DNA of 64,000 nucleotides, taken from the NCBI GenBank assembly GCA_965202845.1, contig OZ241856.1, forward strand, positions 1,452,012-1,516,011, read 5' to 3'. Both the position numbers and the translations under genes were made by a program. Under the pieces are notes generated by a model. It ran no database searches, was not told the DNA's origin, and saw only the letters and a list, made by a program, of their open reading frames with translations. Source of the stretch: Candidatus Marinacidobacterium sp. Lineage in GTDB: Bacteria > Acidobacteriota > Vicinamibacteria > Marinacidobacterales > Marinacidobacteraceae. Numbering within the stretch: position 1 is the stretch's first letter; each line of letters starts with the position of its first letter. Below are positions 6,090-10,831 of the stretch, piece after piece.

Positions 6090-6407
6090 GTGTTGAGCCG
6101 GACTGTAAACCTGACAATCAACGCAGATCGGGATGCGCTCCAGCGGGCCCGGGTGCGCGCCTCTCAGGCAGGCACTTCGGTGAACGCAGTGCTACGGGAA
6201 CAGTTGCGCCGTCATGCGGCTGGCGACTTGTTGCCGGCAGCCCCAAACAAGGAAGTCAACGCAAAAATCAAGGCGCAGCGGCAGCAGGCCGTCCGCGATC
6301 TGCTCCGCATTGCGCAGGAACCCCGTCCACTGGCCGAACCGGCCCAGAGCACCCTTGACGCAAACGGGAACCGATCCTGGACGCGGGACGAATTGTATGA
6401 ACGATGA
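6090..6407 (+). CDS. Antitoxin, ribbon-helix-helix type (VapB-like)
   Basis: NLTI...ARVRA..GTSVNAVLRE RHH pattern; C-terminal WTRDELYER; overlaps the PIN gene start. Confidence 0.75.
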   Translation: MLSRTVNLTINADRDALQRARVRASQAGTSVNAVLREQLRRHAAGDLLPAAPNKEVNAKIKAQRQQAVRDLLRIAQEPRPLAEPAQSTLDANGNRSWTRDELYER

Positions 6408-6822
6408 GCGGTTTTTTCTGGACACCAATGTTCTTGTGTACCTGTTTGATGAAGAAAACCCAAACAAGCAATCCGCTGCATCGAATCTGATCAACCAACC
6501 GGATCGCCAGATCGTCCTCAGCGTTCAAGTTCTGGGCGAATTCTTTCACGTCGTCACCCGCAAGCTCAAGCAGCCGCTCTCCTCCTCCCAAGCGTTCCAT
6601 GTCGCCAACAGCTTCCATCGTTACGAAGTCAGACCAATCGATTCCCTGCTGATTCGCAAGGCCATGGAAAGACAGATCGCTTCCGAGCTGTCTTATTGGG
6701 ACTCCTTGATCGTTGAGAGCGCCATTGACGCCGAAGCGACCTTCCCGGTCACGGAAGACCTTCATCATGGCCAACGATTCGGCGCCCTGGAAATCAGAAA
6801 TCCTTTTCGGGATTCGTCCTGA
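6397..6822 (+). CDS. vapC: PIN-domain toxin (VapC)
   Basis: Starts MNDERFFLDTNVLVY; also QVLGEF, LSYWDSLI and TEDL acidic PIN motifs; NPF C-terminus. Confidence 0.9.
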   Translation: MNDERFFLDTNVLVYLFDEENPNKQSAASNLINQPDRQIVLSVQVLGEFFHVVTRKLKQPLSSSQAFHVANSFHRYEVRPIDSLLIRKAMERQIASELSYWDSLIVESAIDAEATFPVTEDLHHGQRFGALEIRNPFRDSS

Positions 6823-6843
6823 AACCTCGTTCAATTCCATATC

Positions 6844-7107
6844 ATGTCAAGCATGGTGAAACTGACGATCCGCGTGGACCGGGGCGTGCTCCAGTGCGCC
6901 CGGGCACGGGCGCAGCGAGAGGGGACTTCGGTGCAGGAAGTGCTGCGGGAGCAGTTGCGCCGCTATGCGGCCGGCGACCTGCTGCCGAAAACGGCCCGTC
7001 CGTTCCAAGCGGAGTGGCTGGAAGAGGTCGCCAAGCGGGTGAAGGCCTCAGGCGCCAGCGTCCCCGTGTCCGCCATTCTGCAGGCCCGGGATGCCGACCG
7101 GCGCTGA
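6844..7107 (+). CDS. Second RHH antitoxin-like protein (orphan paralog)
   Basis: N-terminal ~48 aa strongly similar to 6090..6407 (GTSV..VLREQLRR.AAGDLLP); different C-terminus; no toxin follows. Confidence 0.7.
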   Translation: MSSMVKLTIRVDRGVLQCARARAQREGTSVQEVLREQLRRYAAGDLLPKTARPFQAEWLEEVAKRVKASGASVPVSAILQARDADRR

Positions 7108-7118
7108 AGGACTGCCGG

Positions 7119-7505
7119 CTACTCCCCCGACGCGCCGGGGTGGACGCGCTCGCCCTCGTACTCCCGCAACCCGCAAAACCCCACCACCTCGTATCCGTTG
7201 GCTGTCAGCAACTCCGCGGCACGCGCGGCTCTTCCGCCGCCCTGTCAAGCGGTGAGGATGGAGACGTCCTTCGGCAACTCGTCGAGCCGCCCCTCCAATT
7301 CGTCAATGGGGATGTGCACGAACCCCTCGATCGTCCCGTGCTCGGCCAGTTCCGCGGCGGTGCGGACGTCCAGCAGCAGCGCCCCGTCCGCCAGCGCGCC
7401 GTCGATGTCCGCGGCCTCCACCCGGGGCGTCGCCCCCTCCTCCCCTGCCCCGCAAGCCGAAAGGATCAAAAACAAAAACGCCGGAACAGCAAGTTTGCGA
7501 AGCAT
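7119..7505 (-). CDS. Rhodanese-domain lipoprotein, probable selenoprotein (Sec87, TGA at 7245-7247)
   Basis: LLDVRT..E...GTIEG..HIP rhodanese motif; readthrough gives ILTA-U-QGGGRAARAAELLTANGYEVVGFCGLREYEG to TAG 7119; lipobox LSAC. Confidence 0.85.
7214..7229 (-). promoter_or_regulatory. Candidate bacterial SECIS hairpin
   Basis: mRNA GCCGCGCGUGCCGCGG 15 nt after UGA; stem CCGCG/CGCGG, loop CGUGC; identical to 7621-7636. Confidence 0.7.
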
Positions 7506-7873
7506 CAGGAAACCTCCCCGCTTTCTTCGTCTCCGTTGAGCGGACGGTACTCCCGTTCGCCCTGGTAGTCCTTGAGGCCGGAGAAGCCGATCACGTCCCG
7601 GCCCGATCGTTCAAGGATAGCCGCGGCACGCGCGGCCCGGGGGCCGACCATTCAGGTGGTCAGGATCGGACGGTCGGCGGGCACTTCGTCCATGCGCTCC
7701 GCCAGCTCGCCGAGATGGATGTGGAGCGCCCCCGGGATCGTGCCCGCTTCGGCCAGCTCCTGGGCGGTGCGGACGTCCAGCAGAACCGCCCGCCGCTCCC
7801 GCAGCACCCGGTCGATCCGGTCGGCGGCGACGTGAGGGGCGCGGGTTCCGAGAACCCGTCCGACGAAACTCAT
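7505..7873 (-). CDS. Rhodanese-domain protein, probable selenoprotein (Sec74, TGA at 7652-7654)
   Basis: LLDVRT..GTIPGALHI; readthrough ILTT-U-MVGPRAARAAAILERSGRDVIGFSGLKDYQG to a TGA overlapping the next ATG (TGATG). Confidence 0.85.
7620..7636 (-). promoter_or_regulatory. Candidate bacterial SECIS hairpin
   Basis: GCCGCG-CGUGC-CGCGGC 15 nt after the in-frame UGA. Confidence 0.7.
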
Positions 7874-7913
7874 GCTCCGCCCATCGTATCAGAGCGAAGA
7901 CGGGAATCGCGCT

Positions 7914-8186
7914 TCAGACGGACAGGTTGCGGGCGGGAGCGCGGGGCGGTAGCACGTCCTTGAGCCGAAGCCCCTGCCCCTTCACGAACGCAAGCAGCCC
8001 CTTCTTGTCAATCGTCCGCAGGGCGCGCGCCGAAAGCCGCAGCCGCACCGAGCGCCCCAGCTCGGGCACCCAGACCGACTTCCACTGCAGGTTGGGAAGC
8101 TGCCGCCGCTTGTTGTGGTTGTTGGCGTGGCTGACGGAGTTCCCCGACAGGGGACGCTTGCCGGTCAGCGAGCAGGTACGAGCCAT
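7914..8186 (-). CDS. rpmB: 50S ribosomal protein L28
   Basis: MARTCSLTGKRPLSGNSVSHANNHNKRRQLPNLQ. Confidence 0.97.
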   Translation of the reverse strand: MARTCSLTGKRPLSGNSVSHANNHNKRRQLPNLQWKSVWVPELGRSVRLRLSARALRTIDKKGLLAFVKGQGLRLKDVLPPRAPARNLSV

Positions 8187-8200
8187 GACGATGGGGGATT

Positions 8201-10831
8201 CTATCGCATCGACGTCGGCGGCGGGGCCAGGTCCTCAACCGCCGCGCCGTTGAGCGCATTCAGGAACAGCTTGTAGGTGCCGCGCGGCTGCCCGCGGAAC
8301 TGGGGGCGGAAGCCGAACAGGATGACCTCGCCGGTTCCCCGGGGAACCCGGGCTATCGCGATCTTGCCGCCGATGGCGCTCTCCTCGCCGAGCGCCCAGC
8401 CGCTCATCAGCAGGTCGTCCTCCGCATAGCGCGCCACCACCTCCACATTGGGCGGCGGCTGCTCCACCGTGGTCTCGGCGCCGCCCTCGCGGGTACGGGG
8501 CAGCGTCACCAGCTCGAAGGCGCGGCTCCGCACGAACTGGGTGGCCGCCTCCTCCCGCATCCCGAAGGCGAGCGGGTGGCTTGTGTCCACCTCCGCGCGG
8601 ATCAGGGAGCCGGGGATGAAGAACCGGTCGGGCGGGAGATTCGCCGTCGCGTTGCGCAGCGGAAGGCCGAACTGGCTGATGACGAAGTCGGAGGCGTGGT
8701 CCAGCGCGATGAGGGTTCCGCCGTCCTCCACAAAACGGGCGAGCGCCAGCGTCCCCCGGAGGCCGATCCCGCCGGTGTACTCCTCGGGCATCGATCCCGG
8801 CGGATGCCCGTTCAGGATCGGACCGGGCGCCTGGTGCGGCAGGATGATCGCGTCCAGCCGGGACAGGTCGCCGTCGCGGATGTCGTCATCGTGAAGGCTC
8901 ACCAAGTCGTATTCATAGGTTTCCAGCAGCCAGCGGGTCCAGCCCTCGTCCATGCTCGCCACCCACGACTTGTAAAGCCCCACCCGCACCGGGGCAAGCG
9001 GGAGCAGCGGGATTTCCGGGGCTGATTCCAGTCCGATGACGTCCAGACCGAGTTCGGAGGCGATCCCCTCCACCGACGCCTCGGCGGCGTCCGAGCGGCG
9101 GACCACCAGGGTTCCCGCCTCGTGCTCCCGGTCCCCGTCCCGGAACGACTCCCGCGCCCAGGCCACTTCGGCGCCGGCGGCGAGCAGCCGGTTCTGCGCC
9201 AACACCGCGGCGTTCGGGCGATGCGAAATCGCGTATCCGAACCCGGGATCGCCCGAAACCGCTCCCGCCGGGGCGCGCGCCGGCCCCGACAGCGGCTCGA
9301 CCGGGACGTCGGGGACGCCGGGAACCCGCTCCACGTCCACGCCCATCTGCATCGGCAGGGTCCAGCCGGCAAGGTCGTAGGGCGGATCGGGCGGACCGTC
9401 GGGCGTGCGGCGCCGATCCGGGTAGGACTGGGCCTCCAGCAGGTCCTCGGCGTAGGCGCGAAACGCCTGGACGCCGGAAATCACATGGGAGCCGGCGCCG
9501 AATTCCCGGTCGCCTGCGACGAACGACTCGGTGGCGCGTCCGATTTCGATCCCGCCGTCCAGCAGGACGTTGAGAAGCGCCGCCGTCTCTCCCGGATCCC
9601 ACTGCTCCGCCGGAATCACCCAGCTGGCGTCGCTCTCCAGGATGGCGTCGCGCCCCATCCGCCAGATGTCGAACAGCCACTTTTCGCGGAGGTCGGCGGC
9701 GACGTCCAGCACTGCCATCGAGGCGGTGAGGGTGTAGCGGATCGGGTCGGAGAAATGCGACGGGCCGCCCGGCCACGGGTAGGGATGGAAGACGTCGGTG
9801 CCGTCGGTGGGCGCCGCCTGGCCGCGCCGGGGGTTGCCGACGAACTCCGGACGCTCCTCCGGGTCGTACATCCGGGGGGTCGCCGAGGCGTGCGAGGTTT
9901 CGGTCAAAAGCCCGATCATGTTGTGGAAGTAGGGCACGGTGCGCATCCCGCCGTTCCACCACATCGAATAGATCATGTCGGAGACCACGCCCGGCATCCG
10001 CTTCATGGCGAAGCGGTTCGCCATCGCCGAGCCGATCAGGTTGACCGAAGTGGTCACGCCCGGATGGATGCGCGGGTTCACCGGGTCGGCGAACGGCGGC
10101 AGGAAGATGCGCGCCCACGCCGGGCCGGTCTGGTGGTGGTTGTAGACGATCTGCGGAAACCACTCCCGGTACAACACCCGGCTCACCGCGGCGGTCTCCG
10201 GCATGTTGTTCATGAACCAGTCGCGGTTGTTGTCGTGCCCGACGTAGTGGTGGTAGAGCTCGGGCGGACGGGTGGTCTCCCACTGGGTCTCCCGGTTCCG
10301 GTGGTACCACGACGCCACGATGTCGAGGCCGTCCGGATTCATGCACGGCATGAGGATGAGCAGCACGTTCTCGCGGATCTTCCGCATCTCCGCCGATTCC
10401 TCGGTGGCGACCCGGTGCGCCAGTAGCGGCGCCATCTGCGCCGGGGCGACTTCGGTGGCGTGGAGGCCGGCGTCGATCCAGACAACCGCCTTGCCGTTCG
10501 CCGCCAGCCGCCGCGCCTCCTCCTCCCCGATCCGGGCGTTCGCCAGCCGGGAGGCGGTCTCCCGATGCTCGTCCAGCGCGGCCAGGTTCGACTCGGAGGA
10601 GAGGAAGAGGACGATCAGCGGCTTCCCCAGAACCGACCGGCCAATCTCACGCAGTTCCACCCGGGGGGATGCCTCCGCCAGCCGCCGGTAGTACTCGTGC
10701 AGATCGTCCCAGAGCGCCAGCTGGTAGTCGTCGCCCGGCTCGAAGCCGAGAACCTCCGCTGGCGTCGGAACGTCCTGGGCGACGGCGGGAGCGCCGAGCG
10801 CCAGCGCCAGAACGAATGCAACGAATTTCAT
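8201..10831 (-). CDS. Secreted M14-family zinc carboxypeptidase
   Basis: Signal peptide MKFVAF..AVAQ; GLHATE, NPDG and DNNRDW motifs; ATGA overlap with the ilvC stop. The ORF track start is over-extended. Confidence 0.85.

Follow-up and report, generated by a model that had tools for sequence, protein, structure and literature searches.

Selenoproteins with a rhodanese domain were listed in early surveys of prokaryotic genomes and of the Sargasso Sea and Global Ocean Sampling (GOS) sequences, in the tables of PMC1088965 (three sequences) and PMC2398784, and eight genes of this kind were reported for the Olavius symbionts (PMC1976440). A 2026 review describes five "forms" of rhodanese selenoproteins (PMC13188914): forms 2 and 4 contain selenocysteine (Sec, U) in a UxxG motif, form 1 in UxxS and form 3 in CxU, and form 5 is TsoB. 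Here we describe two adjacent genes on the minus strand of a stretch of 64,000 nucleotides (nt) of DNA from Candidatus Marinacidobacterium sp., a member of the Acidobacteriota (contig OZ241856.1, positions 1,452,012 to 1,516,011; the whole stretch is referred to as the window and its first letter is position 1), in which an in-frame TGA stands where the catalytic cysteine of a rhodanese is found. Both TGAs are almost certainly read as Sec. The class is not new, as the first-pass annotation of the window had already noted, since UxxG rhodanese selenoproteins are catalogued in the sources just cited; only the exported Sec/Cys lipoprotein form and the compact, invariant selenocysteine insertion sequence (SECIS) are mildly new.

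We propose, with a probability of roughly 85%, that the two genes encode Sec-decoded rhodaneses of the PspE/GlpE type that serve as carriers of sulfane sulfur or selenium, and that the product of gene 2 is lipid-anchored. The features on which this proposal is built are the following.

7505..7873, minus strand: gene 1, predicted cytoplasmic single-domain Sec-rhodanese of 122 amino acids (aa) with internal TGA = U; ATG at 7873-7871, terminal TGA at 7507-7505
7652..7654, minus strand: putative Sec codon of gene 1 (UGA, residue 74) in the active-site loop U-M-V-G-P-R, aligned with the catalytic Cys of rhodaneses
7620..7636, minus strand: SECIS-type hairpin of gene 1, GCCGCG / loop CGUGC / CGCGGC, encoding A-A-R-A-A; loop starts 21 nt after the UGA
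7119..7505, minus strand: gene 2, predicted exported lipoprotein Sec-rhodanese, precursor of 128 aa with internal TGA = U; ATG at 7505-7503, terminal TAG at 7121-7119
7245..7247, minus strand: putative Sec codon UGA of gene 2, residue 87, loop U-Q-G-G-G-R
7213..7229, minus strand: SECIS-type hairpin of gene 2, (G)CCGCG / CGUGC / CGCGG(A), five pairs, register as in gene 1
7452..7505, minus strand: signal peptide of gene 2, residues 1-18, lipobox L-S-A-C; Cys18 (7454-7452) is the predicted lipidated N-terminus
7173..7175, minus strand: second Cys of gene 2, conserved within G-F-C-G (precursor residue 111, mature residue 94) and closing the last beta-strand of the model

With the UxxG forms 2 and 4 of the review, there described as rhodanese-related sulfurtransferases, the pair shares the Pfam family PF00581, Sec at the position of the catalytic Cys, the U-x-x-G motif, the existence of Cys homologues and a status based on bioinformatic prediction alone; the comparison is one of descriptions and leaves the identity of the present clade with form 2 or form 4 not shown. 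A lipoprotein form, a second conserved Cys, a tandem pair of cytoplasmic and exported proteins and members from the Acidobacteriota are all absent from the published tables of rhodanese selenoproteins, although lipoproteins or Acidobacteriota might be listed in the supplements. Form 3 corresponds to the NCBIfam family NF041203 (rhodanese_LYCAU), a family of rhodanese-domain selenoproteins recognised by the NCBI annotation pipeline; with 18.9 and 20.1 bits against a cut-off of 115, and with UxxG rather than CxU, the present proteins do not belong to it. Form 5 (TsoB) gave no match in the NCBIfam scan at E <= 0.01.

The first-pass annotation had claimed that both open reading frames (ORFs) stop at TGA exactly at the column of the rhodanese catalytic Cys and that read-through yields loops fitting CxxGxR. 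Translation through the TGA and alignment with homologues bear this out: gene 1 reads ...PILTT-U-MVGPRAARAAA... and gene 2 ...SILTA-U-QGGGRAARAAE..., with U-x-x-G-x-R in both. The C-termini, which had been called mutually homologous, are indeed so, the two proteins being 51% identical over about 104 residues spanning the TGA. When read through, gene 1 and gene 2 score 40.9 and 42.8 bits against the Pfam model Rhodanese PF00581 (cut-off 22.2), and when cut at the TGA, 26.1 and 21.0 bits, respectively. Translation ending at the TGA would give products of only 73 aa (gene 1) and 86 aa (gene 2), and the expectation that standard annotation would truncate both is confirmed by the public databases, which hold truncated forms of these proteins of 86-110 aa, several of them labelled "hypothetical protein". 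The stop codon of gene 1 and the start codon of gene 2 share one base (TGATG). This overlap had been taken as support for the full-length reading; it is present, but it is particular to this genome, the gap in relatives being mostly -4 to +29 nt, and, adding little to the case for read-through, speaks for tight linkage only.

Both genes are found in 27 of the 28 genomes of the taxonomic family, which span seven genera of Vicinamibacteria-type Acidobacteriota and are metagenome-assembled genomes, and all 54 listed matches have the in-frame TGA. The downstream frame is kept in these orthologues, at 62-83% protein identity, and the alignments run through to the C-terminus beyond the TGA, so that the conservation of the sequence after the TGA, first noticed between the two paralogues, extends to the orthologues as well. 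The lone family genome without a match is 89% complete and consists of 210 contigs. Another 22 genomes of the phylum, from five other families, have a single copy of the gene-2 type with TGA. Relatives in the public databases overlap the family genomes already counted and add no independent support. One sequencing run, which may be the source of this DNA, is left out of account. The contigs of a second study show no difference across both TGAs; in those from a third, a sponge metagenome with a strain that is about 97% identical, there are 34 differences, none of which falls in either TGA or hairpin.

An alternation of Cys and TGA at this column, which the first-pass annotation had named as the check to be made, was found. 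In a tblastn comparison at the codon level, all close loci (L013-L066, L068) have TGA and the seven most distant ones have TGC or TGT; in the latter the domain is fused to proteins of the metallo-beta-lactamase fold or of the CoA-disulfide-reductase type. All 66 homologous loci from other phyla have Cys at the column, as does the public full-length orthologue P0004, which is 59% identical, shares the C-terminal motif and has RASRALTLL in place of the RAARAAALL of the Sec forms. Fifteen weaker rhodanese matches in the phylum (E 1.6e-13 to 4.8e-9; for example G207:C86:637-909, G285:C1:3229382-3229627 and G139:C1:192366-192611) also contain one in-frame TGA each and may represent further, more distant Sec-rhodanese clades in the Acidobacteriota.

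A hairpin of the SECIS type, which had been suggested as a further thing to look for, follows both TGAs. The sequence GCCGCG-CGUGC-CGCGG(C) is common to the two genes; it starts 15 nt after the UGA and its loop at 21 nt. According to the legend of Fig. 2 of PMC13188914, the bacterial SECIS model has a loop of 3-9 nt, a stem of 4-16 base pairs, a distance of 16-37 nt between UGA and loop, a minimum free energy of at most -7.5 kcal/mol, and a G at loop position 1 or 2, with G or U as the usual next base. Both hairpins agree with the four constraints of that legend (loop 5 nt, stem 5-6 base pairs, spacing 21 nt, G at loop position 2), their minimum free energies being -12.6 kcal/mol (gene 1) and -7.9 kcal/mol (gene 2, 30-nt segment). 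The loop starts with C-G-U in 62 and with C-G-G in 7 of the 69 distinct sequences that were aligned from -9 to +60 around the TGA.

Because folding energy does not discriminate in this GC-rich DNA (z-scores against shuffles of +0.6 to -1.7 are uninformative), the hairpin was judged by conservation and covariation. In the given register 94.4% of the cells of the stem are paired, compared with 25-81% when the 3' partner is slid by one to three columns. Four compensatory double changes, two of C-G to U-A, one of G-C to A-U and one of G-C to C-G, fall in two of the six pairs; the covariation score was reached in none of 500 shuffles, and RNAalifold independently predicts the five inner pairs. The hairpin codons specify Ala-Ala-Arg-Ala-Ala, and all five third positions are free to vary; their entropy is just 0.22-0.48 bits, compared with 1.2-1.9 bits at four-fold-degenerate sites outside the hairpin downstream of the TGA, on both flanks, and 0.68-0.92 bits at three upstream sites. 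No such hairpin follows the terminal TGA of gene 1. A scan of positions 6500-8500 of the window against Rfam at E <= 10 gave no match, nor is one to be expected for bacterial SECIS elements of this type.

The genome, a single contig of 2.86 Mb that is 94.9% complete, encodes selA (393.5 bits), selB (328.6 bits) and selD (253.2 bits), each above its curated cut-off, and among its 47 tRNAs one tRNA-SeC with the anticodon tca, the only tRNA with this anticodon. The complete set selA/selB/selC/selD for which the first-pass annotation had advised looking is thus there. SelA was detected in 301 of 401 sampled genomes of the phylum; of the 22 that carry the TGA form, 21 have it and the remaining one is 69% complete. 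Both tallies include genome G051, on which nothing else here depends. The molybdopterin oxidoreductase family PF00384 has no match in the whole genome, and therefore formate dehydrogenase, the most common bacterial selenoprotein, is absent; the Sec machinery must therefore serve small redox or sulfur-handling proteins such as this pair. The only other rhodanese in the genome is a two-domain Cys protein. Outside the window, two AhpC-TSA (PF00578) matches of 99.6 and 70.7 bits with one in-frame TGA each (G000:C1:1091372-1091761 on the minus strand and 1862203-1862652 on the plus strand) are candidate Sec-peroxiredoxins.

One copy had been said to carry a lipobox (LSAC), and so it does. The N-terminus of gene 2, MLRKLAVPAFLFLILSAC, has a signal peptide and a lipobox that passes the strict pattern after PROSITE PS51257; gene 1 has no signal peptide, and 0 of 27 sequences of its type pass the rule. 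Among 49 distinct sequences of the gene-2 type, 27 pass strictly and 11 more when Trp is allowed at -2, which makes 38 of 49. Three of the 11 failures run off the locus; by eye, three have leaders of the signal-peptidase-I type and two no evident leader. In one genus (L020-L034) the gene-2 orthologues have an unusual lipobox, L-G-W-G-C, with the Trp at -2 conserved in 11 sequences. The genome encodes Lgt (PF01790, 176.7 bits) and LspA (PF01252, 128.3 bits). From these targeting signals the product of gene 1 is predicted to be cytoplasmic and that of gene 2 to be exported and lipid-anchored, and they suggest that Se/S-transfer chemistry might take place on both sides of the inner membrane, as the first-pass annotation had supposed.

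The active-site loop has six residues, C(U)-x4-R, and its U/C, G and R positions do not vary among 55 sequences. Loops of six residues (C-x4-R) are typical of sulfurtransferases and loops of seven residues (C-x5-R) of Cdc25/Acr2 phosphatases and arsenate reductases; a function of the latter kind was considered for the pair and is ruled out by the loop length. As modelled with AlphaFold, mature gene 2 has the fold of a standard rhodanese domain (mean predicted local distance difference test score, pLDDT, 85.7; predicted TM-score, pTM, 0.75), with Sec closing strand 66-70 and the second Cys closing strand 90-95. Its best matches among solved folds are the rhodanese domains of CoADR-RHD 3icr (E 3.2e-8, TMq 0.78), of the persulfide reductase 3nta (43% identical), of the CoA-persulfide reductase 8a56 and of the persulfide dioxygenase-rhodanese fusion 5ve3. 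No solved structures come closer to the pair, by profile (E 4e-23 to 4e-17) or by fold (TMq 0.73-0.78, 30-43% identity), than these domains and that of 3tp9, all of them parts of CoA-disulfide/persulfide reductases or persulfide dioxygenases, and they carry persulfide sulfur on their catalytic Cys. They are, however, Cys proteins and C-terminal domains of large flavoproteins or metallo-beta-lactamase-fold enzymes, whereas the present proteins are stand-alone, have Sec and lack such a partner gene nearby.

Stand-alone rhodaneses rank after these reductase- or dioxygenase-linked domains both by profile and by fold. PspE (periplasmic, 2jtq; profile E 3.6e-11) and GlpE (cytoplasmic, 1gmx; E 1.6e-9) from E. 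coli resemble the pair in being single domains of about 100 residues with a six-residue loop, one of them periplasmic and the other cytoplasmic. Unlike the pair they have Cys, are neither lipoproteins nor encoded in tandem and have no G-F-C-G cysteine; the scores with the corresponding NCBIfam equivalogs, 29.2 and 17.0, are far below the cut-off of 102. Sud, the periplasmic polysulfide-sulfur transferase of Wolinella succinogenes (1qxn; profile E 4.6e-9), is like gene 2 an exported single-domain rhodanese and a sulfane-sulfur carrier, but it is a soluble Cys protein. Sud works with a polysulfide reductase; the present genome, by contrast, is without molybdopterin oxidoreductase.

Because the loop is of the six-residue type and the nearest relatives are persulfide-handling rhodanese domains, we propose that the pair carries sulfane sulfur or selenium. 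SelB carrying Sec-tRNA(Sec) would bind the GC-rich hairpin and the UGA would be decoded as Sec, and the second TGA of gene 1, which has no hairpin, would end translation. The product of gene 1 would stay in the cytoplasm and that of gene 2 would be exported and lipid-anchored at Cys18. Sec would then accept sulfane sulfur or selenium, hold it covalently as Se-S(H) or Se-Se(H) and pass it on. In the exported protein, Sec and the invariant Cys of the adjacent strand could be joined in a selenenylsulfide; this bond would serve either to resolve the covalent intermediate or to shield Sec from the oxidising conditions of the periplasm. The incorporation of selenium, the substrate, the Se-S bond and the localisation are what we infer here from the sequences and the model.

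Alternatively, the selenoproteins could act as redox enzymes rather than as sulfur carriers, the exported form being a selenol/thiol oxidoreductase that operates via a Sec-Cys selenenylsulfide on, for example, polysulfide, selenite-derived species or peroxides in the periplasm. What speaks for this is above all the second Cys (G-F-C-G), which is invariant in the exported clade (47 of 47 distinct gene-2-type sequences) and is found in only 6 of 25 sequences of the cytoplasmic clade, the other 19 having Ser. The strand order of the rhodanese fold is 1-5-4-2-3, in which the strand of Sec and that of the second Cys are neighbours, and therefore the two residues, each at the end of its strand in the model, are probably close in space. 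Moreover, the other Sec candidates of the genome are peroxiredoxin-like, and most predicted bacterial selenoproteins are stated to resemble thiol oxidoreductases (PMC9312934). Against a redox function stand the six-residue C-x4-R loop of the sulfurtransferase type, the persulfide-handling domains as nearest solved structures, the cytoplasmic paralogue, which mostly lacks the second Cys, and the lack of a linked redox partner gene. On balance we consider it unlikely.

Several points weigh against Sec-decoded sulfur or selenium carriers. The presence of selenium in either protein is a prediction from sequence. SelA is too common in the phylum (301 of 401) for its co-occurrence with the TGA form to be more than weakly discriminating. 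The hairpin of gene 2 has only five pairs, and its -7.9 kcal/mol is barely inside the limit of -7.5 in the published legend; for GC-rich homologues with Cys some hairpin is likewise predicted at this site, and energy alone does not discriminate between them. The stem is nearly invariant, the covariation amounts to four cells in two pairs among related sequences, and for such sequences the shuffle control (0 of 500) overstates the support. The lipobox rule fails in 11 of the 49 gene-2-type sequences, the probable closeness of Sec to this clade's second Cys depends on the general strand order of the rhodanese fold, 1-5-4-2-3, and with no conserved neighbour in ten out-of-family loci the substrate is a guess.

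That UGA is read through without a Sec system, by a near-cognate Trp or Cys tRNA or in a reassigned code, would explain the downstream conservation equally well, as would read-through of any kind. It is nevertheless very improbable: TGA ends many genes here, including gene 1 and 25 of its 27 orthologues, the sole tca-anticodon tRNA is tRNA-SeC next to a complete selA/selB/selD set, the homologues have Cys at the column and thus form the classic Sec/Cys pair, and a conserved hairpin lies at SECIS distance. That the TGAs are true stops, the genes being pseudogenes or short N-terminal fragments and the downstream similarity a relic, is hardly credible even if gene callers and public databases give only the truncated products and gene 1 also uses TGA as a real stop, for the TGA and the frame behind it are kept in both genes in the 27 family genomes and, as a single copy, in the 22 further genomes of the phylum, the truncated products would miss the catalytic loop and two secondary-structure elements, and the hairpin is conserved at synonymous sites.

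A more far-reaching interpretation takes the exported clade across the Acidobacteriota as a distinct, uncatalogued lipid-anchored periplasmic rhodanese with a selenenylsulfide couple of Sec and the invariant Cys; in the family it would be partnered with the cytoplasmic Sec paralogue, and on either side of the inner membrane the two would move or detoxify reactive species of sulfur or selenium, and the start of the RAARAA helix would be shaped by the SECIS RNA as much as by the protein. As a whole we regard this as quite unlikely.

In a maximum-likelihood tree of 55 sequences the Sec subfamily stands apart from the Cys fusions (support 99/95), and the gene-1 clade (100/95) is sister to all gene-2-type sequences from within and outside the family (90/86). 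Gene 1 did not, therefore, arise from a recent duplication of its neighbour. It was seen in this family only, the loci outside having single gene-2-type copies, and it could be either an old paralogue kept only in the family or a fast diverger after loss of the leader; its origin is tentative because the tree is rooted only by long Cys branches. For 24 of the 27 genomes the intergenic gap could be computed: in 21 it lies between -29 and +29 nt and in the other 3 between 47 and 193 nt. The two genes are tightly linked and probably co-transcribed.

Upstream of gene 1, with its end 40 nt away, lies a ribosomal protein L28-like gene (rpmB by sequence impression; 7914-8186, minus strand) that is 76-90% identical among relatives. 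The adjacency is found in three of the seven genera of the family; in this genome the rhodanese pair may be co-transcribed with it. In the ten out-of-family loci no neighbour recurs beyond close kin, an aldo-keto reductase being found in two loci and a glyoxalase in two of one genus, and the gene context offers no hint of function. Convergent with the rhodanese pair are two small paralogous ORFs (6090-6407 and 6844-7107, plus strand; 54-65% identical by tblastn) that flank an ORF of 202 aa (6214-6822). Beyond its own loci this group (6090-7107) has a tblastn match in only one relative; that it is a duplicated antitoxin-like gene around a toxin-like gene is only an impression.

The pair leaves the current understanding of selenoproteins unchanged. 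As listed fragments the genome's only two single-domain rhodaneses are invisible to functional profiling, and reading them through the TGA corrects the annotation. The compact, invariant SECIS of 17 nt within conserved codons could be a convenient model for dual coding constraints. For the organisms themselves, the two genes are a well-supported addition to the selenoproteome of marine and sponge-associated Acidobacteriota.

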